From the NCBI GenBank assembly GCA_027858315.1, contig JAQICV010000077.1, forward strand, positions 6,186-70,185: 64,000 nt of DNA, in the 5' to 3' direction. The DNA comes from Candidatus Woesearchaeota archaeon. GTDB taxonomy: Archaea > Nanobdellota > Nanobdellia > Woesearchaeales > UBA583. Below, piece by piece: positions 430-48,255 of this stretch. The notes under the pieces were generated by a model. That model saw nothing but the letters and a program-made list of their open reading frames with translations, did no database searches and was not told where the DNA came from. How positions within the stretch are numbered: position 1 is the first letter of the stretch; each line of letters opens with the position of its first letter. The position numbers and the translations under genes were made by a program.

Positions 430-1059
430 TTATAATATAAATAAACCTTCTATAATTCCTACTTCGTAAATTAAAATAATACCTACTAAAATACTTAAAA
501 TTCCAGCAATTTTTGGAGTCCAATTATTACTTGAAATTTTATTAAATAGAAAGTATAGAACTAAACTTACACAAAACATTCCTATCATTGAACCAAATCC
601 AAAGATCAAGATATAAATTAAACCTTCTAAATTATTTTGAATGGATGTCAAAATTAAAAGTATTAAAGCTGCACTTCCTGCAAGACCATGAATCATTCCA
701 ATTCCTAAAGATTTTTTATTTGTATCAATTGATTTTAGTCCTAATTCTAATTTTTTATGAAATGAACCAAGTCCTAAAATTATTAACATAATACCAACAC
801 AAAATTCTAAAAACAATGCTAGAGTTTGTGGAAGAGTAATATTTAAGATTAAAACTAAAAATCCTACAAAAAATAAGGTTATAGTGTGTCCTACTCCCCA
901 AATTATTCCAAGTTTTAACGAATTAAAAATACTTTTCGAACTTGCAAGTAATGTATTTACTGCGACTATATGATCTGCATCAAAAGCGTGTTTTATTCCG
1001 ATAAGAAATCCTATTCCTAAAAATAAAAAAAATTCCATTAGAAAAAATATATCAATCAT
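430..1059 (-). CDS. NicO-family nickel/cobalt transporter
   Basis: 209 aa polytopic membrane protein carrying the 'HAFDADH' signature of the NiCoT/NicO family. It is adjacent to the hyp genes. Confidence 0.55.
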   Translation of the reverse strand: MIDIFFLMEFFLFLGIGFLIGIKHAFDADHIVAVNTLLASSKSIFNSLKLGIIWGVGHTITLFFVGFLVLILNITLPQTLALFLEFCVGIMLIILGLGSFHKKLELGLKSIDTNKKSLGIGMIHGLAGSAALILLILTSIQNNLEGLIYILIFGFGSMIGMFCVSLVLYFLFNKISSNNWTPKIAGILSILVGIILIYEVGIIEGLFIL

Positions 1060-1191
1060 TTTTATAAACTTTTTCTAAAATAAAAAATAAATAAAAATCT
1101 TAAAATCATAATCAATTTAGAATTTAGAACAATAAATATTTAATAAATTGAAACATTTATAATCCATTACAAGGTCTTTCTAGATACTCAC

Positions 1192-1207
1192 AAAGTTTTA
1201 TAAAAAT
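1192..1207 (+). promoter_or_regulatory. TATA-like box upstream of hypF
   Basis: 'agttttataaaaattg' lies about 25-35 nt upstream of the ATG at 1229, consistent with an archaeal TATA box and a leaderless mRNA. Confidence 0.3.
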
Positions 1208-1228
1208 TGTAAATAATTATATATTAAG

Positions 1229-3415
1229 TTGTATAGAATTAGAGTTTTTGGGATTGTGCAAGGTGTAGGATTTAGACCTTTTATTTATAATGAAGCTATA
1301 AAAAACAATATAAAAGGAACAGTTCAAAACACTGGAGATGGTGTTGAAATTATTTGTAATAATAAAGAATCAATATTAAGGATTTTGAAAACACCTCCAA
1401 AGCTTTCAAAAATTGAAAAAATAAAAATTGAAGAAGTTTTAAATTTGCCTGATTTTAAAGATTTTAAAATACTTGAAAGTGAAACTAGTAATTCTTACTC
1501 TCCAATTCCTGCTGATTTAAATTTATGTTCAGATTGCATTAAAGAAATGTTTGAAGTGAATAATCAAAGGTATAAATATTTTTTCATTTCATGTATTAAT
1601 TGTGGACCGAGATATTCTATAATAAAATCAACACCATATGACAGGAAGAAAACTACTCTAGATTTTTTTAATATTTGTAAGTTTTGTAATGAAGAATTTA
1701 AAGACCCTACAAATAGAAGATTCCATGCACAAACAATTGCATGTCCTGATTGTGGACCTCAACTTTCTTTGTACAAAAATGGAATTAAGATTGAAGGTAG
1801 TTGCCCAATAGAAGAAGTAGCTAAATTAATTAATAAAAATGAAGTTGTTGCTATTAAAGGAATAGGAGGATTTCACCTTGCTTGCTCAATTGAAGATGAA
1901 GCAATTTTAAGATTGAAGAAAATAACTCAAAGATTCCATAAGCCTTTTGCACTTATGGTAAAAAATGTTGCAATGATTGAGGGGTATGCAAAAATTAGTA
2001 AAAATGGACTTGAGCTTTTACAATCAAAAGAGAGGCCAATTGTTCTTCTTGAAAAGAAAGACTCAAATATTCTAAAAGAGATAAGTGAATTATCTAGTCT
2101 AGGTTTTATGCTACCTTATTCAGGAGTTCATTATTTATTATTTGAACATCTTGATTCTCCTATTGTTTTAACATCATCTAATTTGCCATCTTTCCCAATT
2201 ACCACTAAAAAAGAAGAGCAATTTACAGATTATGTCTTAGATTATAATCGAGATATTTCAAATAGTGTTGATGACTCAATTATTAAAGTAATTGGAAATG
2301 AAAAACTGATAATAAGGAGAAGTAGAGGATTTGCACCAAATGAGATTGAAATTCCTAAGAACTATCTAAATTTTTCAGAAGATATTTTAAGTGTGGGAGC
2401 TGAACTGAAGAATACTTTTTGTATTAAAAAAAATGATAAATTAATTCTCTCAGAACATATTGGAAATACTTATAATTTGGAAAATTTTGAAAACTTCAAA
2501 TCTAGAATTTTTAAGTTAATGGAATTTACAAAGTCCACCCCAAAAATAATTTTGAGAGACTCAAATGTAAACTTTAATACTTCACAATTTGCAGAAGAAT
2601 TTTCAAAAGAGAAAAATATTGAACTATTCAATATTCAGCACCATATTGCTCATGGTTTTTCTGTTGCACTTGAACATGATTTGAAAGATTTTTTAGCTAT
2701 TGTTTGTGATGGTTTAGGGCTTGGAGAGGATGGGACTGCTTGGGGAGGAGAAGTATTTCATAATGATAAAAGAATTGGACATTTAGAATATCAAAGTTTG
2801 GTTGGTGGCGAGATAGCAAATAAAGAACCTAGGAGAATCTTAGTTGGGATTTTAGCTAAATTTATGAAACTTAATGAGATTGAAAAAATATTAGGTGAGA
2901 GTTTAGAAATTAAAACTTATTTTGAACAAAAAAAACAAAATTTTAATTGTGTTGAAACTTCAAGTGTTGGAAGAATCCTAGATTGTGTTTCTGTTCTTTT
3001 AGGATTCTCAGATAAGAACTATTATGAAGGTCGAGGCGCTATGCTTCTTGAGTCAAATTCTAGTTCAAAAATTAAATTATTTTTTGAACCAATTATTGAA
3101 AAAGAAAATAATTTATTTATTTTGAAAACTACTCCACTATTTGAATTCATCAAAAATAATCTTGATAAAATATCAAGAGAAGAACTTGCTCGTTTCGCGC
3201 AGATTTATATTGCAAAAGGATTATTTGAGATTGCGAAAAAATATGATGAAAAATTGCCAGTAGTTTTTAGTGGAGGGGTTGCATATAATGAAATAATAAC
3301 CTCATTTATGATTAAGAATAAAGTATTGTTAAATAAAGATATTCCTTGTGGTGATGGAGGAATTAGCGCAGGACAAATTGCATACTTTTTATGGAAAGAG
3401 AAAAATAAAAATTAA
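1229..3415 (+). CDS. hypF: [NiFe]-hydrogenase maturation carbamoyltransferase HypF
   Basis: 728 aa ORF with an acylphosphatase-like N-terminus (VQGVGFRPF), two CxxC-x18-CxxC zinc fingers, and YrdC-like and Kae1-like domains. Confidence 0.9.
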   Translation: MYRIRVFGIVQGVGFRPFIYNEAIKNNIKGTVQNTGDGVEIICNNKESILRILKTPPKLSKIEKIKIEEVLNLPDFKDFKILESETSNSYSPIPADLNLCSDCIKEMFEVNNQRYKYFFISCINCGPRYSIIKSTPYDRKKTTLDFFNICKFCNEEFKDPTNRRFHAQTIACPDCGPQLSLYKNGIKIEGSCPIEEVAKLINKNEVVAIKGIGGFHLACSIEDEAILRLKKITQRFHKPFALMVKNVAMIEGYAKISKNGLELLQSKERPIVLLEKKDSNILKEISELSSLGFMLPYSGVHYLLFEHLDSPIVLTSSNLPSFPITTKKEEQFTDYVLDYNRDISNSVDDSIIKVIGNEKLIIRRSRGFAPNEIEIPKNYLNFSEDILSVGAELKNTFCIKKNDKLILSEHIGNTYNLENFENFKSRIFKLMEFTKSTPKIILRDSNVNFNTSQFAEEFSKEKNIELFNIQHHIAHGFSVALEHDLKDFLAIVCDGLGLGEDGTAWGGEVFHNDKRIGHLEYQSLVGGEIANKEPRRILVGILAKFMKLNEIEKILGESLEIKTYFEQKKQNFNCVETSSVGRILDCVSVLLGFSDKNYYEGRGAMLLESNSSSKIKLFFEPIIEKENNLFILKTTPLFEFIKNNLDKISREELARFAQIYIAKGLFEIAKKYDEKLPVVFSGGVAYNEIITSFMIKNKVLLNKDIPCGDGGISAGQIAYFLWKEKNKN

Positions 3416-15784: not shown

Positions 15785-16621
15785 ATGGATACAACTCTTC
15801 TTTTTGATGAAACTATTAATTGTTTAAAAAAAATAAATAATAAAAAAGATAATATAGATTTAAGTCAAAGTTCATTTCTGACTCCATTCTTCATTGCACC
15901 ATTAGCTGCATATTTAAATAATGTCAAATCAAAAAATTGCATATTACCAATAAGAACAGAAGTCTTTTCTTATTTAGAATATGTTAAATTTCCAACAGGA
16001 ATAAATGTAGATGAATTCAAAAGAAGAGCTGATAAAAAAACATATTTGCCCTTATTTTCATTTTATGATAATGAGATTGATAATGAAGAAATACTTAGCA
16101 AACTAATAGATTGTTTAACTATTTTTGCAGATATAAAATATAATAAAGATTTAATATATAATCCTTTAGCAGAATTAATAGATAATGTGAAAGAACATTC
16201 CCATTCTACTAAATGTGTTATTACTGCACAAATTTATGAAGAAAAGTATCTTGCAATTTCTTTAGTAGATAATGGGAAGACAATACCTCAAAATTACATT
16301 GATGCAAAATTTGGTATAAATAATGATATAGAAGCTTTTGAACAAATACTTAAAGGAATATCATCTACTGGTGATAATACTAGAGGGTTTGGTATTCAAA
16401 CATCACTTCAAGTCATTTCTGAAGCACTTAAAGGAACTATATTTATAGTTTCAGGCGGGGGAGGGATATACAAACAAGGCAAAAATCCACCTACATTATA
16501 TGATTTTACTAAATATAATTTAAAATATAAAGGAACAATTATTAATATTATCTTTGAAATGCCGAAAGAATCATTAAAAATAAATAAAATGGATTATTTA
16601 AGCAAAAAACGAATATATTAA
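15785..16621 (+). CDS. GHKL-family (histidine-kinase-like) ATPase
   Basis: 278 aa ORF with an N box (ELIDNVKEH), a G1 box (DNGKTIP), a G2 box (GFGIQTS) and a GGGG lid. Confidence 0.55.
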   Translation: MDTTLLFDETINCLKKINNKKDNIDLSQSSFLTPFFIAPLAAYLNNVKSKNCILPIRTEVFSYLEYVKFPTGINVDEFKRRADKKTYLPLFSFYDNEIDNEEILSKLIDCLTIFADIKYNKDLIYNPLAELIDNVKEHSHSTKCVITAQIYEEKYLAISLVDNGKTIPQNYIDAKFGINNDIEAFEQILKGISSTGDNTRGFGIQTSLQVISEALKGTIFIVSGGGGIYKQGKNPPTLYDFTKYNLKYKGTIINIIFEMPKESLKINKMDYLSKKRIY

Positions 16622-16673
16622 CCTTTAAATAGTCAATGAATAGGTTTATAAAAAAAGACATCATATTATATAT

Positions 16674-16979
16674 ATGAAAAAAATAGAATTATCTAAATCT
16701 TTTAAAAATAAACTAGCTTTAAGATCAACTGCTAGACATTTATTTGATATTATCATTGAAGAAAATATTACTACATTAGATTTTAAAAATATTGAATTTA
16801 TCTCTAGATCATTTGCAAATGAGTTATTAAAATTAGAAAAAGAAACAAAATTAAAATTAGAAAAAATTAATATGAGTTCAAATGTAAGTTTTATGATTAA
16901 GTTTGCTTTAGAAAATAGGACTGAAGATTCTAAAACTAATTATAAAATAGGTAATCTTGATAATTTGATTGCATTATAG
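16674..16979 (+). CDS. DUF4325/STAS-like domain protein
   Basis: 101 aa ORF with LALRSTARHL..LDFKNIEFISRSFANEL, matching the STAS-like DUF4325 pattern. Confidence 0.45.
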   Translation: MKKIELSKSFKNKLALRSTARHLFDIIIEENITTLDFKNIEFISRSFANELLKLEKETKLKLEKINMSSNVSFMIKFALENRTEDSKTNYKIGNLDNLIAL

Positions 16980-20603: not shown

Positions 20604-21140
20604 TTATTTTTTAGTATATTTTAAAATAACAATTCCTTCTTGAATAGTAGATTCCTCTAGATGTAATTTTATATTAGGATTGTTTTCTAAAAATAATCTT
20701 CTTCCTGAACCTAAAATGGTCGGGATAATACCAATAATATAATCATCTATTATCTCTGATTTAATAAATGTGTCAGTTAAACCAGCTCCCCCATATAACC
20801 AAATATTTTTCCCATTTTCTTTTTGTAATTCTAATATTTTATCTACAATATTTTCTTTTCTGAATTCAACGTCTTTGAGTTTCGATTTTAATTCTTTTGA
20901 TGTTGCAACATATACTTTTTTATCTTTAAACATTTCAATTGATTCTTCAGGAATATCTTCATATGCTTTTCTTCCCATAACTACTGTATCAATAGAATTT
21001 AAAAACTCTTCAAAATTAAATTTTTTATTAGTATCATGGCTCTTATCTGCATCTCCGACTATCCAATCAAAGCTTCCATCTCCTCTTGCAATATAACCAT
21101 CTAAACTAATTGCTAGATTTAGAATTATTTTTCTTGACAT
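20604..21140 (-). CDS. RibD C-terminal domain / dihydrofolate-reductase-like protein
   Basis: 178 aa ORF with ILNLAISLDGYIA and GDGSFDW. A second, disrupted paralog lies at 37563..38105. Confidence 0.65.
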   Translation of the reverse strand: MSRKIILNLAISLDGYIARGDGSFDWIVGDADKSHDTNKKFNFEEFLNSIDTVVMGRKAYEDIPEESIEMFKDKKVYVATSKELKSKLKDVEFRKENIVDKILELQKENGKNIWLYGGAGLTDTFIKSEIIDDYIIGIIPTILGSGRRLFLENNPNIKLHLEESTIQEGIVILKYTKK

Positions 21141-21190: not shown

Positions 21191-22402
21191 AAGCCCTCCG
21201 ACCGGGAGTAGTTTAATGTTAGAAATACAAGATATCAACAATAAAGAACTAAATACGTTGATATTAATAAATTTTAAAACTTAAATAAAAGTTCACCTCC
21301 TTTAATTAGGTGACTACAAAAATGAAAAATGAAAAAAATGTAGTCTCCTATTTCAAAGTTTTCTTGTACTGCTTTATTAAAAACTGAATTGTTGGTTTTA
21401 AATTGTTATTTTGAGAGTATTCTCTTAAAGAGAAGTAATACTCTTGTCTATCTTCTAAAAATATGTTAATTGGAGGATAATTATTTTTTAATAATATGTA
21501 ATTTAGTAATAATCTACCAACTCTGCCATTTCCATCTTGAAATGGATGAATATGTTCAAATTGATTATGGACTAGGGCTGCTAAGATCAGAGGTTTAAAG
21601 TTATTCTTATTCTCATTATACCAATGTATAAATTCGTCCAATTCTTCTTTTAATTGTGAGACAGGTGCTCCTTGATGAATGATATCACCTTGATTATTTT
21701 TTATTACAACTTCAACATCCCTTAACTTCCCTGCAAATCCTTTTGAACCTTTAAAACAAATTTCATGTAATTTTAATATTAAATCTAAAGAAACATCATC
21801 CTTGCAAGTGTTAATGAAATCTACGGCCAATCCAACATTAATAGTTTCTAGTTCATCTTTAGTTTTAGGTAAAGTTTTCTCTTCAAGTAAATCCTTAACT
21901 TCATCTTCAAGAACAGATGAACCTTCAATTGCATTAGTATTATATACGAAATCTTCTTTAAATTTCTCAAATTCTGAATTTTGAAGATGAATTATTTTTA
22001 ACTTAGAATCATATTTATTTAATTGATTAATTTGAGAAGAAGATAAAAAAAAATTAAAGACTTCTGTTTTTAACTCTTCAATTTGTTCAAGAATTATTTG
22101 CTGTGCCCTAGATTTATTTTTTTCTAAATCTTTTGCAGATAAATTTTGTCCTAGATACCTAGAAATTTTTTTTACTTTATCATTATCTCTATAAGAATGA
22201 GATAAATAGTATTTTATATTTTTTCCAGATTTTCTTTTTTCTACAAACATAGTAATAATTAGGTGACTACAATTTATAAATATATCTTCTTATGTAGTCA
22301 CCTTTCTTAAAATTTAGGTTCACCTCCTACCAAAAGTCAAGAATCTAGAAAATACATAATACGGTTCGCCTCCCGCGTTTTTTAAAAGCCCTCCGACCGG
22401 GA
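21191..22402. mobile_element. ~1.2 kb tRNA-Glu-associated cassette carrying a Fic gene, flanked by a 17-bp direct repeat of the tRNA 3' end
   Basis: 'aagccctccgaccggga' occurs at 21191-21207 and again at 22386-22402, inside the tRNA. Internal repeats: 'aggtgactaca' at 21308 and 22261, its inverse at 22293, and 'gttcRcctcc' at 21291, 22318 and 22364. Confidence 0.6.
21348..22250 (-). CDS. Fic-family protein (AMP-transferase), class II with inhibitory TxxxEG helix
   Basis: 300 aa ORF with the Fic motif HPFQDGNGRVGR and an upstream TNAIEG inhibitory motif. Confidence 0.85.
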   Translation of the reverse strand: MFVEKRKSGKNIKYYLSHSYRDNDKVKKISRYLGQNLSAKDLEKNKSRAQQIILEQIEELKTEVFNFFLSSSQINQLNKYDSKLKIIHLQNSEFEKFKEDFVYNTNAIEGSSVLEDEVKDLLEEKTLPKTKDELETINVGLAVDFINTCKDDVSLDLILKLHEICFKGSKGFAGKLRDVEVVIKNNQGDIIHQGAPVSQLKEELDEFIHWYNENKNNFKPLILAALVHNQFEHIHPFQDGNGRVGRLLLNYILLKNNYPPINIFLEDRQEYYFSLREYSQNNNLKPTIQFLIKQYKKTLK

Positions 22403-37393: not shown

Positions 37394-37562
37394 CTCAAAT
37401 ACGAGATTTGGTGAATAGGGAGTAGAAATTTGCGAAACCTTCCGAATCTTAATTTTAAATAATTCTGAACAAAATGTCAACTTTGAAAGTTTACTATTTT
37501 AGAAAATTGAATTTTTACTTAGAATAATAATAATACTATCAATAGAGATAGAATAAATATAT

Positions 37563-38105
37563 TTAGATTTTTTTATTATATCTTAAAATGATGACTCCTT
37601 CTTTTAGTGTAGATTCTTCTAGGTGTAATTTTATTGTAAGATTATTTTCTAAAAATAATTTCCTACCACTTCCTAAAATAATTGGAATAATGCCTAGAAT
37701 ATATTCATCTATAATATTTGCTTTAATAAATGAATCCGTTAATCTTGCTCCACCATATAACCAAATATCTTTGCCTTCTCCTTTTTTTAATTCTAATATC
37801 TTATTACAAATATCTTTTGATATAAATTTAACATCTTTAAGTTTTGATTTCAATTGTTTAGATGTTGCAACATATACTTTTTTACCATTGAACATTCTAA
37901 TTGATTCTTCAGGAATATCTTAATATGCTTTTCTCCCCATAACTACAATATCAATAGAATCGAAAAAAATTTCAAAATTAAATTGATTTTTTGTATCATG
38001 ACTTTTATCTGAATCTCTAACTATCCAATCAAAGCTCCCATCTTCTCTTGAAATATAACCATCTAAACTAATAGCTAAATTTAAAATTATTTTTCTTTTT
38101 GTCAT
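37563..38105 (-). pseudogene. RibD_C/DHFR-like gene interrupted by in-frame nonsense codon
   Basis: Paralog of 20604..21140. Codon GAA (KAYEDIP) is TAA here at about 37916, splitting the gene into 37920..38105 and 37563..37895. Confidence 0.7.
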
Positions 38106-38239: not shown

Positions 38240-38293
38240 ATTACTTATACTTTATAAGAATTATAAGAGGTTTTTAAAGATTTTGATTGAAAA

Positions 38294-38950
38294 TTACCTA
38301 AAATAAGAATGAATTAATTCATATATCTTTCCTTTTAATTTGAAACAAGTATTTATATCATTTTCAAGATTTTTCTGATAAAACCTATCTAAATATACTT
38401 TTTTTAAAAAAGGACTTCCTTTTACAAAGGGAATTTTATCTAGATAATTTTTATTAACTGTATTTTTATATTCCATCTTATTTCTAAATTCCCATTTTCC
38501 AATTTGTGTTTTGATTTTATTATTGTTTTTATCTAAAAATTCAACATCTTTCATATCTCTTACAACTAAATATAGTTCAAATTCCATTGAACCATAATCT
38601 GATTCAGGAAGATTTTTTTTGAATTTCCATTTAAATTCGAATTCTTTTGCCCACCCTCTCTCAACGACAACATGTTCAACTTCAAACATATCTGAATTTC
38701 TATTTATTCGCTCTTTATTATCTACCCATTCTCCTGCTTTTACTAAATAATCTCCATCAGGACTCCATACATCAGTGAATTTTAAATTTACAAGTAAGTC
38801 ATGAAGATCATTGTAAAATTTTTTAATATCTACTTTTTTTGAAAAAACTTCTGTTGCAGGTTTAAATAACAGACTTTTTTTATCTCCTAGAACTTCATTA
38901 ATTATATTAGTAGTAGTAGTCCCACCCCTTAAATAATTGTCATCACCCAT
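38294..38950 (-). CDS. hypothetical protein
   Basis: 218 aa ORF with no motif. Confidence 0.3.
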   Translation of the reverse strand: MGDDNYLRGGTTTTNIINEVLGDKKSLLFKPATEVFSKKVDIKKFYNDLHDLLVNLKFTDVWSPDGDYLVKAGEWVDNKERINRNSDMFEVEHVVVERGWAKEFEFKWKFKKNLPESDYGSMEFELYLVVRDMKDVEFLDKNNNKIKTQIGKWEFRNKMEYKNTVNKNYLDKIPFVKGSPFLKKVYLDRFYQKNLENDINTCFKLKGKIYELIHSYFR

Positions 38951-39012
38951 ATATCTATAATTTAAACAAGAAAAGAAGTTTTTAAATCTTTCTTTTCATT
39001 AAATAAGAAAAT

Positions 39013-39549
39013 TTAAAGATTTTTATCAATCATTATATCATTTGGTTTAACATAACTTAGAAGAATTCTTAAATTTTTTAGAAATAACTCAATGTCCTCT
39101 AATTTAGTTTCAATTGAAGAATTTGGTTGAGTTATTTGCTTTTCTAATTTTGAATTTATATTTTTTAGCTCAATTGAAATTAATTCAATATTAGAGTCAG
39201 ACGAATGATCTAGCATATCTTTCATAGATTCAACAAGTCCTGAGAGTGATCCTATCATCCCCTCTAATCTATCATCTAGGCTCTGAGTTTTAGTTACAAG
39301 ATTATCTAATGTTGATTTATTTAAATCTTTTATATCATCTAAATGGTTAATTATTGTTTCTCGTTCTTTTTTTGATTCTTCATTTATTACTTGAATTATT
39401 TGAGAAAGAAGTTTTGTATCTGGTTGAGCTTGTTTTTGAGGAACGAGAGTTTTTTGTTTTAAGAGATCATTTTCTTTTTTCAATTTAGAATTTTCTTCCT
39501 TTAAATCTCTAATTGAACTCTTTGCTACTAACTCATATTCGTCATCCAT
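39013..39549 (-). CDS. coiled-coil protein
   Basis: 178 aa ORF with heptad-rich sequence. Confidence 0.3.
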   Translation of the reverse strand: MDDEYELVAKSSIRDLKEENSKLKKENDLLKQKTLVPQKQAQPDTKLLSQIIQVINEESKKERETIINHLDDIKDLNKSTLDNLVTKTQSLDDRLEGMIGSLSGLVESMKDMLDHSSDSNIELISIELKNINSKLEKQITQPNSSIETKLEDIELFLKNLRILLSYVKPNDIMIDKNL

Positions 39550-39640
39550 ATGATATTTAAAGTTAATTTTAATATATTAATTTATCACTACTTGAAAATG
39601 TTAGACAATAAAATTAATTGAAATTAATTAAATTTAAGAT

Positions 39641-39892
39641 ATGTTAGATCAAATCATGTTAATTATAGGTATTTCGGGAGTTTTAGTTATTGCTCTAAAT
39701 TTTATTTTAGAGGCAACAAATAGATTAGGAAAAGACCATAAAAGTTTTGCTTTACTTAATGTTTATGGGTCCAGTGCACTTTTCATATATTCTTTATATG
39801 AAAAAGTTTGGTTATTTGTAGTTTTGAATGGATTTTTAATATTTGTTGGATTTTATGGAATTTATCAAGTTTTTAGAAATAAAAAGAAATAA
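39641..39892 (+). CDS. small membrane protein
   Basis: 83 aa ORF with two transmembrane helices. Confidence 0.3.
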   Translation: MLDQIMLIIGISGVLVIALNFILEATNRLGKDHKSFALLNVYGSSALFIYSLYEKVWLFVVLNGFLIFVGFYGIYQVFRNKKK

Positions 39893-39894
39893 AT

Positions 39895-40356
39895 TTATTT
39901 TTCATATATCTCAATTAATTTTTTATTTACACTAGAATACTTCTCATTAAACTTAGCAATAATCTCATTTATTCTTACAGTATCAAATTTACCATTAGGT
40001 TTAAAAAAATCAATTATGTCATGAGCTGCATGAATGTTACCCAAATTATCCTTTTCAAATTCAATAGCATTTTCAGTATGTACGAGACTATTTCTCATAT
40101 TGTTTAGAAAGTATAGGTCATCAAATAATTCTCTTGCGATTTTGCCTTCAAGCCACTTCTTTTCATTGTTTATATGTCTAAACAACTTTAGTTTTGAATT
40201 AAAACTAATTATTGAGTTATTGAATAGAATTTGATGATAGAATTGTTCTTGAGTTTTTTGAGGTTTGAGGTGTTTTATTAGGATTTGTTTTAGATAAAAT
40301 TCTACTTGATTAAACTTTAAAATAATTTCACCAATTAATTGTTCTTTTTTTTCCAT
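39895..40356 (-). CDS. mini-HEPN protein with RNxxxH motif (paralog-like of 15234..15722)
   Basis: 153 aa ORF with the NMRNSLVH motif and similar size and architecture. Confidence 0.4.
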   Translation of the reverse strand: MEKKEQLIGEIILKFNQVEFYLKQILIKHLKPQKTQEQFYHQILFNNSIISFNSKLKLFRHINNEKKWLEGKIARELFDDLYFLNNMRNSLVHTENAIEFEKDNLGNIHAAHDIIDFFKPNGKFDTVRINEIIAKFNEKYSSVNKKLIEIYEK

Positions 40357-40397
40357 GTGTTAGATTAAGAAGTCTTTATTTAATAAGTTAACTAACT

Positions 40398-41027
40398 CTA
40401 TAAATCATTATAGCTAACTAATTGAATATTGTTTTTATCTAATTTGGGAACTAAATATTTAATTTTTTCAATGTCTAACTCTCTTTTCTCATTTAAACTT
40501 GATTTGCAATTTTCATCATATGTGCCTGGATGAAATAAAATTTCATATATCTCATCTTCTTGCATTGATTTTATCATTTCATCTAAATCCTCAAAAGATG
40601 AGTCAGTCCCGTTGAAAAGTTTGTTTGTAGTTTTCACATCTTTTAATTTATTGGTCATAGTTCTACAAGGCAAATTATTCTCTTTACAAAAATTTGAGAT
40701 TACTAAGATTTCTTCATCCGATTTTTTTGGTTTATGAATATCTATGTGAGATGGATTAAATGAGAATATGTCTGAAAAATGATTATATTGGATTGCGATT
40801 TCTTTTTCAAAATTTTCATTTTTAAATTCTAAATGAAGACCAATACTCAAATTATACTTTTCTTTTAATTCAATTATTTTTTTAATTTGCTCTTCTTGTT
40901 CATCACTTACCCAATTTACCATAACAGTTGTTGAAGTAACAAGATTGTTTTCAATTAAATTTAGAATAGATTCGTTAAATATCACACTATATCCAAAATC
41001 ATCCGCATTAATAATTATTCTTTTCAT
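40398..41027 (-). CDS. YdjC/ChbG-family carbohydrate deacetylase
   Basis: 209 aa ORF with IINADDFGYS at the N-terminus and His-containing motifs. Confidence 0.55.
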   Translation of the reverse strand: MKRIIINADDFGYSVIFNESILNLIENNLVTSTTVMVNWVSDEQEEQIKKIIELKEKYNLSIGLHLEFKNENFEKEIAIQYNHFSDIFSFNPSHIDIHKPKKSDEEILVISNFCKENNLPCRTMTNKLKDVKTTNKLFNGTDSSFEDLDEMIKSMQEDEIYEILFHPGTYDENCKSSLNEKRELDIEKIKYLVPKLDKNNIQLVSYNDL

Positions 41028-41069
41028 ATAAATATTAGTTTAAAATATGAACCTTATAAATATTTCTAA

Positions 41070-41237
41070 AATTTAAAATAATAGAGGAGGGAGGGATACG
41101 AGAAATTTTTCTTCGAAATAATTTCTGGACAATTTGAACAATAATAAAAATTCGGGAAATTTTTAAACAAATTGAATAATTCAATTAGGTTCAAATAGTT
41201 TGAACCTTCAATCACAATTTATAGAAAATAGGTGAGG
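41070..41237. repeat. miniature element 3' of tRNA-Cys: att-like duplication plus palindromic hairpin
   Basis: 'gagggagggat' at 41087-41097 repeats the tRNA 3' end at 41227-41237. The hairpin is agaaatttttcttcgaaataatttct at 41101-41126. The body is homologous to 48027-48147. Confidence 0.55.
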
Positions 41238-41294
41238 GAGGGATTTGAACCCTCGATCACAGGGTTGCAGCCTATTGCCTTAACCACTTGGCCA
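41223..41294 (-). tRNA. tRNA-Cys (anticodon GCA)
   Basis: Cloverleaf with anticodon loop CTGCAAC and discriminator U73, which is typical of tRNA-Cys. Confidence 0.85.
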
Positions 41295-41393
41295 CCCCAC
41301 CACAAGTAAATATTAATTATATTTGTTTTATAAAGGTTTCTTACAAAGAAACTTCCGAAGAAATCTCTGATTTGTGACTGAAATTTTCCTATA

Positions 41394-44063: not shown

Positions 44064-44684
44064 TTATAAAAGTTCTTTAAATTCTTGAATATTTTCTACC
44101 AAATAATCTGGATTAAATTTTTCAAGTAATTTTTTAGAGTTATAACCCCAACTAACACTTATACATTTTACTCCTGCAGCTTTGGATGCTTCAATATCTC
44201 TAATCTCATCTCCAACATAATATACTTCTTCTTTATTTAGATTATTTTCATCAATTATTTTTTGAATGTGTTTTGCTTTTCCAAATAAAGAGGATTTGTA
44301 GTATTGTTTGTCAAAGAAATCTAATTTCTCTTTTTTGAATATTTTTTCAACAAATTCTTTGTTGTTAGAAGTTAAAATGTATAGTTTATGATTTTTACTT
44401 TTTAGATGTTCGAATAAAGTTTTTATTCTTTCAAAAGGTTTTACTTCGGAGTCCCTTTTATTAAAATCTCGTTTTATTTTCCAAACAATATATAATATCT
44501 GTAATTTATTAAGTTTAAATTCTTTGATTATATCATGCAAGGATTTATTTTCTATCAAATTGTATAGTCCTTTTTTACTCACTTCAATTCCAGATTTATT
44601 TGCATTTAAATATAGACAATCAATTAATAAATCTAAACTGTTAAGTATTGTTCCATCTACATCAAATATTAGAGTTTTACTCAT
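44064..44684 (-). CDS. HAD-superfamily hydrolase
   Basis: 206 aa ORF with HAD motif I IFDVDGTI and C-terminal motifs. Confidence 0.6.
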   Translation of the reverse strand: MSKTLIFDVDGTILNSLDLLIDCLYLNANKSGIEVSKKGLYNLIENKSLHDIIKEFKLNKLQILYIVWKIKRDFNKRDSEVKPFERIKTLFEHLKSKNHKLYILTSNNKEFVEKIFKKEKLDFFDKQYYKSSLFGKAKHIQKIIDENNLNKEEVYYVGDEIRDIEASKAAGVKCISVSWGYNSKKLLEKFNPDYLVENIQEFKELL

Positions 44685-45779
44685 TTTTGAACTCCAATAA
44701 AAAAATGTCTTTGATATTTATTACAGGTTTTGAATGTCTTAATATGTCATCTTGACCAATTCTAGGACAAGCAGTATTTACCCAACATTCTACGAATGGG
44801 AAATTTTCCATTTCACTATCCAAGAAATTATCTGAAACAAAATAATAAAATTCTTTATCTTTGTATTGGTCTTTTAATTTTAAAGCTGATTCTTTGTATT
44901 CTTGTCCCCATTTTGATGAAACAAAAACTCCGATAATGTTTGAAGTATAAAATTTTAAAAGATTTCCTTTTTTCTTTTTTAAGTATTTTTCAATATGAGT
45001 TTTATCTATTACTTCAATTAATTCTTGAACTATATTTAAAATAATTACTGGCTTGATTTTATCCTGATTTTCTTGAGCTAGTAGAATTGCATTTGGATGA
45101 AAATATCCATCACCAATATATACAAATCCATCAACTTTTGAAATGTCTAAATTTAAATTGTCTACATAGGAATCACACCCTAGAATTTGTCCTTTAAATT
45201 CTGCTCTATGAGGTTTAGTAATTATTATATTGTATCCTTCTTTTTCTAAAAGAGATTTTACTATTTCTAATTTTGGAATAAATTGAATTGCGCAGTATAT
45301 AGCAATTGTTTTTTTTTCACCAAGTGTTTCTTTTAATTTTTTAGTAAAATCTTGTGGTATTATGAAGTCTATTCCAAAATTTGCATTTAATAATTTTATT
45401 TTCATTTTTGGACCACCTCCAAAAATGAAGAAATTTGTTCCAAATTTCTTAACAATCCAATACTAAGTATTTTGCCTTGTTTCATTCTTTACCACATCTC
45501 CTTTTTCTTAATGTATACAGCATGACCCCATTGAACACATAAGTCAAAACCCAATTTATCTAAGTGGTGAGGGATGTCACATGCACCAAAACATGTACCA
45601 AAATATGAAAAATAATCTGCTTTTGTTTTTTCTTTTAGTTCATCAATTATCTCTTTTGAGTAATATTTTAGTCCATCCGGAAACTGAAGAAGCACTAATT
45701 TGTGATTATTAGAATTTATATCATCTATTAATTTGTCAATTTCTAAATCATAATATGTTTTGTACTTTTTCTCACTCAT
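44677..45779 (-). pseudogene. diphthamide biosynthesis Dph2 (2-(3-amino-3-carboxypropyl)histidine synthase), split in two frames
   Basis: The N-terminal 96 aa (LLQFPDGL, GTCFGACD, WGHA) lie at 45489..45779. The C-terminal 242 aa (GQILGCDS, GDGYFHP) lie at 44677..45405. A stop plus a frame change fall in the 83-nt gap. Confidence 0.55.
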
Positions 45780-47996: not shown

Positions 47997-48177
47997 TTAG
48001 AATTATGAAAATGTGGCCATACGGATACGAGAAATTTTTCTTTGAAATAATTTCTGGAACATTGTTAAAACAAAGTACGAGAAATTTTACTACACAACAA
48101 TTTTTACTTCATAAAAATAGTTTGAACTCTCTTCAAATCTTATTCAATTAGAATTACGAAAACGTGGCCACGCGGAT
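47997..48177. repeat. miniature element 3' of tRNA-Pro: ~30-bp att-like duplication plus palindromic hairpin
   Basis: 'ttagaattaYgaaaaYgtggccaYRcggat' occurs at 47997-48026 and 48148-48177. The hairpin is agaaatttttctttgaaataatttct at 48030-48055. Confidence 0.55.
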
Positions 48178-48237
48178 TTGAACCGCGGTCCAAGCGTCCC
48201 AAACGCCTGATGATAGACCAGACTACACTATGGCCAC
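48163..48237 (-). tRNA. tRNA-Pro (anticodon UGG)
   Basis: Cloverleaf with anticodon loop TTTGGGA (G37) and T-arm CGCGGTTCAAATCCGCG. Confidence 0.85.
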
Positions 48238-48255
48238 ATAAAAAAAATGTTGGAT

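Follow-up and report, generated by a model that had tools for sequence, protein, structure and literature searches.

The tRNA-Cys and tRNA-Pro genes of a Woesearchaeota MAG are each trailed by a homologous non-coding body of ~115-135 bp that carries a common hairpin motif. These bodies are members of a real, recurrent miniature non-coding family tied to tRNA 3′ flanks in Woesearchaeota. Judged from sequence, the recurring layout is suggestive of a small mobile element whose insertion downstream of tRNA genes leaves them intact. The explanation that we favour, although only tentatively, is that both loci carry members of a single family of non-autonomous mobile elements, non-coding and rich in palindromes, whose insertion duplicates the target beside the T-arm.

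Two homologous bodies and their hairpins

The window, by which we mean the whole 64,000-nucleotide stretch that was analysed, has a G+C content of 27% and contains six tRNAs, as called by ARAGORN and Rfam. The two tRNAs at issue are both intact and lie on the minus strand: tRNA-Cys (GCA) at 41230-41301 (ARAGORN; Rfam RF00005, 63.9 bits, threshold 29) and tRNA-Pro (TGG) at 48162-48238 (ARAGORN; Rfam 48163-48237, 50.2 bits, threshold 29). Near both loci lie housekeeping genes, including those for Pth2, SRP54, diphthamide synthase, dUTPase and the ribosomal protein uS2, the nearest homologues of the last being found in Woesearchaeota/Nanoarchaeota MAGs. Both loci were recovered with 100% identity in the independent assemblies L002-L004 of the sister JGI metagenomes 3300051638-40, and the structures are therefore no assembly artefact.

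Other features of this neighbourhood were also recorded. The diphthamide synthase (Dph2-like) gene occupies two adjoining ORFs of 96 and 242 aa at 44677-45779; since the same split is seen in L008 and L038, it is probably a real two-gene layout. A RibD_C/DHFR-type reductase-like ORF at 37563-38100 on the minus strand, similar to an intact ORF at 20604-21140, contains an internal stop codon and is, as judged by reading, probably a pseudogene. The gene content between tRNA-Cys and tRNA-Glu(CTC) varies as well, with five genes including YdjC in the window (38240-41070) versus two unrelated ORFs in L008 (14831-16108), and the window interval looks like a variable islet.

Read in the direction of the tRNA, the layout begins with the intact tRNA, a trailer of 13-19 nt, a T-loop-like block (GGTTCAAAC), a variable middle and a hairpin (CCAGAAATTATTTCRAAGAAAAATTTCTCGT), and continues with ATCC and the remaining T-stem, followed by the acceptor strand and the trailer once more. 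The kinship of the two bodies and their shared hairpin, proposed in the initial annotation of this DNA, was borne out: they align at ~70% identity over 150-160 nt (E ~1e-13 to 1e-14) and are collinear over their whole length, which implies a common origin. The window contains two copies, and no more, of a 32-nt motif (ACGAGAAATTTTTCTTYGAAATAATTTCTGGA), one at 41098-41129 and one at 48027-48058, each on the plus strand; 0 would be expected from shuffled sequence.

This motif marks the main hairpin, HP1, which was delimited by motif count and DNA fold. Its Cys copy, of 33 nt (TACGAGAAATTTTTCTTCGAAATAATTTCTGGA; 41097-41129, plus strand), adjoins the distal pseudo-3′-end described below, and its Pro copy (48026-48058, plus strand) differs from it by one loop base. 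Folded as single-stranded DNA, the two copies give z = -2.7 and -3.4; the stem, initially taken for a near-perfect one of 11 bp, is an interrupted 11 bp (7+4 bp with one bulge). A stretch of 34 nt at HP1 (TACGAGAAATTTTTCTTCGAAATAATTTCTGGAC, TACGAG...CTGGAC) is identical in L001, a contig of another Woesearchaeota MAG, where the remaining body is only ~65% identical.

The core of the Cys element, at 41098-41198, is non-coding and homologous to the Pro element by alignment and by nhmmer (E = 2e-18), and the Cys body as a whole is a chain of four palindromes. One of these is a second hairpin, HP2, at 41187-41207 (AGGTTCAAA-tag-TTTGAACCT; DNA fold -7.2 kcal/mol, z = -5.25), a perfect 9-bp palindrome that consists of T-loop-like sequence followed by its own inverted copy; it is dissimilar to HP1, and a counterpart, TTCAAATAG(T/G)TT, is conserved in L038 and L041. 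The remainder of the Pro body, at 48059-48147 (alignments; nhmmer E = 1.6e-15), holds a degenerate HP2/T-loop-like sequence (GAGTTCAAACTATTT) and a second AAATTTCTCGTA at 48076-48087, and a tRNA-like fragment, either Cys- or Pro-derived, lies at the proximal end of the Pro element. The closing consensus first proposed for both bodies, aatagtttgaacYtYcaa, fits the Pro copy only if a 3-nt indel is allowed. Across loci the bodies are modular, with the hairpin module present, shortened or absent (L038 versus L039).

Neither element contains an ORF, and no integrase, transposase or recombinase domain was found in the elements, in ten scanned ORFs of the 81 in the window, or among the precomputed Pfam hits on the Cys side. 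If mobile, an element that encodes nothing would have to be moved in trans; only two copies are visible in the 64 kb, and no candidate enzyme was found among the ORFs and Pfam hits just named. Direct reading revealed no terminal inverted repeats at the repeat-adjacent ends. Several known classes of sequence were considered and set aside: C/D-box or H/ACA small RNAs, as the sequence has no box motifs; an intrinsic terminator, as no T-run follows the hairpin; a BHB tRNA intron, as the junctions have no bulge-helix-bulge; a split-tRNA half, as the full tRNAs are intact; and a dif/Xer-type site, or a crossover site of another kind, at the hairpin, as two directly oriented active sites at a distance of 6.9 kb would bring about the loss of essential genes, SRP54, Pth2 and tRNA-Cys among them.

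Duplicated tRNA 3′ ends at the proposed insertion sites

At each window locus the body lies between repeats that match the local tRNA together with its own, non-conserved trailer. On the Cys side, the proximal repeat (41217-41244, minus strand) begins where the T-loop ends (ATCC...) and takes in the final 15 nt of the tRNA and a trailer of 13 nt. The distal repeat (41070-41097, minus strand) consists of a trailer-like flank and a pseudo-3′-end, ATCCCTCCCTCCTCT at 41083-41097 versus the real ATCCCTCCCTCACCT at 41230-41244, in which one acceptor-stem pair is broken. The two repeats are identical at 16 of 18 positions and at 21 of 28 over the full stretch without gaps. The motif gagggagggat, originally placed at 41087 and 41227 within a similar flank of ~28 bp, does begin at 41087 and the flank is present at the ungapped identity just given, but the second copy begins at 41234, so that the period is 147 bp and not 140.

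The Cys locus holds a further partial copy of the tRNA at 41199-41216 (minus strand), directly adjoining the core. It corresponds to tRNA positions ~42-58 (TGTGATTGAAGGTTCAAA versus the real TGTGATCGAGGGTTCAAA; 16/18 identical), with a local alignment score of 26, which the highest-scoring of 200 shuffles also reached. The core thus divides the pseudo-tRNA copy at the T-loop, with positions ~42-58 and 59-73 on opposite sides and without duplication at the split. With this split and the modular bodies, the architecture is more complex than the one first described.

On the Pro side, the distal repeat (47997-48026, minus strand) comprises the trailer and a pseudo-3′-end with a broken T-stem, ATCCGTATGGCCACA at 48012-48026 versus the real ATCCGCGTGGCCACG at 48163-48177 (~0.01 chance matches expected), and the proximal repeat (48148-48177, minus strand) comprises the last 15 nt of the tRNA and a 15-nt trailer. 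The pair had been noted at these positions with 27 of 30 nt matching; the positions stand and the count is 26 of 30, while the repeat reaches ~35 nt if one indel is allowed. At the occupied sites of relatives, too, the pseudo-copy always tracks the local tRNA variant and the local trailer; for tRNA-Pro it reads TGGCCAC in the window and CAGCCAC in L007, L038 and L039. The apparent paradox of differing repeats beside a shared body, already remarked upon in the initial annotation, is thus real, and it is sharpened both by this matching of local variants and by the occurrence of the core in both orientations.

The extent of the repeats is variable. The clean repeat measures 15-18 bp in the window-Cys locus and L007 and 29-30 bp in L038 and the window-Pro locus, and in L040 and L041 it begins 5 nt earlier. 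In all copies of 'B' orientation the duplication begins at the T-loop edge, and it is 15 bp long only in L007 and 18-34 bp elsewhere. This variability in length and start argues against an enzyme with a fixed ruler. Element size varies too, and the repeat period ranges from 85 to 151 bp across loci, which rules out a constant period of ~150 bp. At the junction of core and pseudo-copy there is a 4-nt ATCC overlap, and the 11-mer TTCTCGTATCC is also present inside the L040 body.

Such irregular lengths and junctions, including the overlap and the internal 11-mer, are what would be expected if no dedicated enzyme were involved and the structures were by-products of replication or repair (template switching, fold-back synthesis, slippage) at the palindromic T-arm and the hairpins. 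Processes of this type would duplicate parts of tRNAs, invert T-loop fragments and string palindromes together, and the products could then spread between loci by gene conversion, and the inverted build of HP2, the four-palindrome chain of the Cys element and the small tandem duplications that distinguish the window from L005 all agree with them. They leave unexplained, however, the identical 34 nt in another MAG behind another tRNA, the much stronger conservation of HP1 than of the rest of the body, and the presence of the same core behind at least three different tRNAs; we regard this origin as unlikely.

Duplicated tRNA 3′ ends also bound a larger insertion in the window. The 3′ end of tRNA-Glu(TTC), TCCCGGTCGGAGGGCTT at 22386-22402, is repeated exactly at 21191-21207, with 0 chance matches expected; the 17-nt repeat is made up of the last 15 nt of the tRNA and 2 nt of trailer. 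It delimits an islet of 1.2 kb (21191-22402, minus strand) with a single Fic/DOC gene at 21348-22250 (Pfam Fic, E = 2e-22), which is flanked by two similar hairpins (GGTGACTACA-N21-TGTAGTCACCTAATTA); no integrase was found inside the islet. In all, three of the six window tRNAs are followed by inserted DNA that is delimited by a second copy of the tRNA 3′ end, and in each of them the duplicated part begins at the 3′ edge of the T-loop; the mini-element itself is absent from four of the six.

The sequence 'tacgaga' that follows tRNA-Gly had been offered as a possible third copy, but neither blastn nor nhmmer detects an element there. In its own right, the window (37395-37510) and L041 (~2200-2315, minus strand) have in common a conserved stretch of ~115 nt that follows tRNA-Gly(TCC) on its downstream side. 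It contains GGGAGTAGA..TTTG.GAAACCT and TTTTAAATAATTCT, has no Rfam match, and could be a novel small RNA or a very old element remnant.

Occupied and empty sites in relatives

The tRNA-Pro sites of relatives were fetched via uS2 homologues and the tRNA-Cys sites via Pth2 homologues, and the hairpin motif was searched for in a genome collection at one genome per species. The latter scan returned a single match, L001, which was found without reference to tRNAs. In L001 the motif lies 70 nt downstream of a tRNA-Leu, with a second TTCGAATCCC 151 bp past the T-loop, and on this reading the element probably sits behind that tRNA-Leu; the contig and the window have no common genes on which to gauge their relatedness. 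The same hairpin gave no match in the metagenome collection.

Further copies, which the initial annotation had proposed to look for, were found on other Woesearchaeota contigs. At tRNA-Pro, L007 carries a full element with a perfect 15-nt pseudo-copy, its trailer having diverged; L038 carries a repeat of tRNA end and trailer that matches at 28 of 29 positions; and L039 has the same insertion as L038 minus a 45-bp hairpin module. At tRNA-Cys, elements are present in L040 (19/20 repeat) and L041 (19/24 repeat). Orthologous tRNA loci, the other comparison then suggested, included both empty and partly deleted sites: the tRNA-Pro sites of L005 and L036 retain partial bodies without a pseudo-copy, those of L006, L008-L011 and, with an unrelated region downstream, L037 are empty, and the tRNA-Cys sites of L008, L009 and L011 are empty as well. 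Small tandem duplications separate the window from L005.

A profile of the core, run against 402 kb of fetched Woesearchaeota DNA, gave significant matches only in the first ~150 bp downstream of tRNA genes, namely at window Cys, window Pro, L001 Leu, L041 Cys and L038 Pro. The core is thus present in two copies in the 64 kb and at no fewer than five independent loci across MAGs. With respect to the tRNA, its orientation in L041 and L001 is the reverse of that in the window and L038, and both orientations therefore occur. The neighbour of the pseudo-copy differs likewise, being HP1 in the window, another 33-nt module in L007, L038 and L039, and HP2 in L041. Treating the window arrangement as a simple inversion of that in L041 accounts for HP2 and fails at the distal junction. 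The earlier suggestion of a small family of non-autonomous elements, or of scars, therefore stands as regards the family, whose members lie at tRNA-Pro, tRNA-Cys and, elsewhere in Woesearchaeota, probably tRNA-Leu; the choice between element and scar is taken up below.

The modules common to L005, L036, L038, L007 and the window make the tRNA-Pro element look old and vertically inherited. With an element of that age, the likeness of the repeats within a genome could reflect gene conversion rather than fresh insertion.

The constancy of the tRNA association raises the question of a function in the tRNA transcription unit, for instance as a small RNA cut from the trailer, as a signal for processing or termination or as a binding site for a protein, with the pseudo-3′-end as part of the function, e.g. 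as a decoy or pairing partner. The strong conservation of the hairpin, the position of the element always directly downstream of a tRNA, where co-transcription is possible, and the perfect 15-nt pseudo-copy kept in L007 beside its diverged trailer are all in keeping with it. Against this, a scan of Rfam 15 at gathering and permissive (E <= 10) thresholds brought only tRNAs to threshold and nothing credible around the element or in L001, and folding the entire element as RNA gave no significant stability for one strand or the other (z = -1.9 and -1.5). As DNA palindromes the stems are perfect, with no G-U asymmetry, and no T-run comes after the hairpin; the element can face either way with respect to the tRNA, the pseudo-copies of the window have stem-breaking changes, and the element is missing at the same tRNAs in close relatives as well as at most tRNAs of the window. 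We therefore consider a functional RNA, together with its proposed decoy or pairing role, highly improbable.

Two other observations concern insertions next to tRNAs in these contigs. Downstream of tRNA-Pro in L037, small ORFs, a PDDEXK-like protein and a DUF5678 protein (914-3228) replace the usual dUTPase synteny; this may be a larger element inserted at tRNA-Pro, on a contig that ends before any second repeat. In L008, an IS200/IS605-like element (Y1_Tnp; 16224-16770) lies 40 nt downstream of tRNA-Glu(CTC), with GC-rich hairpins at its left and right ends and a weak flanking repeat of tRNA end plus trailer (GAGGGTTGTTATTT / GATGGTTGTTACTT). It was considered as an autonomous partner of the mini-elements and rejected, its hairpins being unrelated to HP1.

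Origin of the repeats and comparison with known elements

Three observations, namely the collinear bodies, the locus-specific repeats and the two orientations, are best accommodated if the repeats are made from the target at insertion. A core of ~100-120 bp would reside in the 3′ flank of a tRNA, and its insertion beside the T-arm, in a staggered-cut, transposition-like event, would duplicate the target from the 3′ edge of the T-loop to ~13-19 nt past the tRNA end (~18-34 bp). The upstream copy would preserve the tRNA gene, and the downstream copy would be left as a free pseudo-3′-end that decays. Mobilisation would be in trans, by an enzyme encoded elsewhere, for which the conserved 33-nt hairpin would be the most likely handle. 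Repeats supplied by the target rather than by the element would allow a single family to stand behind tRNA-Cys, tRNA-Pro and tRNA-Leu in either orientation. Some features count against such a duplication: there are no terminal inverted repeats, the sequence adjoining the repeats is not conserved, the length and start of the repeats vary, no candidate enzyme came to light among the ORFs scanned, and the extra tRNA fragment (positions 42-58) between the Cys trailer and the core is not predicted by a simple duplication of the target. The apparent age of the tRNA-Pro element weighs against it as well, since gene conversion would then be needed to keep the repeats alike.

The repeats could instead be attL and attR left by tyrosine-recombinase integrative elements (viruses or plasmids) whose attP carries the tRNA 3′ part, in which case the bodies would be attP arms after deletion of the interior, and the remnants might still be mobilisable in trans, like CIMEs. 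Insertion by an integrase classically leaves direct repeats that comprise the 3′ part of a tRNA gene and extend beyond it by a few nt, and such repeats are found here. Archaeal att sites span 8-69 bp (PMC6563490), a range into which the repeats of 15-34 bp fall. The 1.2-kb Fic islet with the same type of repeat at tRNA-Glu in the same window, the replaced synteny at tRNA-Pro in L037, where a larger insertion is possible, and the arrays of partial tRNA copies in L041 and the window-Cys locus, expected from repeated use of one att site, speak for this origin as well. However, two independent deletions would not leave identical junctions in collinear Cys and Pro bodies, and a single mini-element cannot carry two different attP cores. 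One attP core per lineage in a fixed orientation is not what is observed: core orientation is not constant between loci, which would be unexpected for a conservative site-specific integrase with a fixed attP, and no conserved sequence adjoins the core repeat in the family as a whole.

No integrase was found among the ORFs and Pfam hits scanned, and no viral counterpart either. Viral contigs scanned with the hairpin, with the 33-nt module of L007 and L038, and with tRNA-Pro 3′ ends joined to trailer or T-loop yielded no match; the hairpin-flank pattern gave 4 chance matches, none with the hairpin; and the bare tRNA-Pro 15-mer gave 83 matches, all on contigs of at least 40% GC, which were treated as chance. 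No free or viral form of the element emerged from these scans. On balance we judge an origin as att scars possible but rather doubtful, and the template-switch and functional-trailer-RNA explanations less likely than it.

Compared with known systems, the mini-elements share features with several and coincide with none in every respect. As described in PMC6563490, citing Williams 2002 and She 2002/2004, tRNA-targeting integrative elements (tyrosine-recombinase viruses, plasmids and islands) likewise have direct repeats of the tRNA 3′ part plus trailer, leave the tRNA intact, reuse or array their sites and vary in occupancy between strains. The elements described here differ from them in being ~100-135 bp long with no integrase or other gene, in having homologous bodies between the repeats of two tRNAs, and in the unfixed orientation of the core.

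Non-autonomous derivatives offer a second comparison. CIMEs are att-flanked derivatives of integrative elements without a recombinase; they are kilobases long, bacterial and of a single att specificity. The mini-elements resemble them in being non-autonomous, bounded by att-type repeats and presumably reliant on a recombinase in trans, and differ in being miniature, archaeal and provided with several tRNA-specific repeats. With MITEs, PATEs and REP/BIME sequences they share small size, non-coding and intergenic nature, richness in hairpins, occurrence in both orientations and a presumed dependence on an enzyme in trans. They differ in having no terminal inverted repeats, in the target duplication, which is variable and 15-34 bp long rather than a fixed 2-10 bp as in MITEs, and in a strict association with tRNA 3′ flanks, where long stretches of the tRNA ends are duplicated. 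PATEs of the IS200/IS605 type have similar subterminal hairpins at both ends and insert without duplication 3′ of a short fixed target by means of a Y1 transposase. The split of the window-Cys copy at the T-loop without duplication recalls this pattern, from which L041 departs.

The casposase (Cas1) of Aciduliprofundum boonei provides a precedent for recognition of the T-arm with duplication of the target, although the details differ: its target is the T-psi-C arm of tRNA-Pro and the adjacent segment, which is duplicated on insertion, the tRNA remains intact, and the duplication is derived from the target, so that tandem arrays are possible (PMC5137440). Casposons have terminal inverted repeats and a fixed duplication of 14-15 bp that overlaps the tRNA by 5 bp, and they encode Cas1 and PolB (PMC5137440). 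In the present case the duplication is 15-34 bp long and overlaps the tRNA by 15-20 nt, and the absence of inverted repeats on direct reading rules out a casposon-like layout. No Cas1 was found among the ten scanned window ORFs or the precomputed Pfam hits of the Cys locus.

A bolder proposal, which we put forward as speculative and improbable, is a new DPANN integration system that would use the T-arm of tRNAs as a leader-like landmark and duplicate the adjacent ~20-35 bp (tRNA 3′ end plus trailer). It would mobilise hairpin mini-elements as well as small cargo islets, such as that of the Fic gene at tRNA-Glu, in parallel to the repeat duplication by Cas1-Cas2 or to the casposase, with a longer duplication and without terminal inverted repeats. 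The mobile elements of DPANN archaea, e.g. Woesearchaeota, appear to be little described; a full-text literature search on Woesearchaeota integrases, tRNA and mobile genetic elements returned nothing but an unrelated review.

If the target-derived duplication beside the T-arm is correct, the family would represent a compact natural form of safe-haven targeting of tRNA genes that needs no attachment site borne by the element, and it would be relevant to the way in which target choice arose in the casposase and in integrases of the Cas1 type. Even if the structures are att scars, they mark tRNA-Cys, tRNA-Pro and tRNA-Glu as integration hot spots. The combination of a partial tRNA 3′ end with the 33-nt hairpin provides a search signature for integrated elements and their enzymes in Woesearchaeota genomes.
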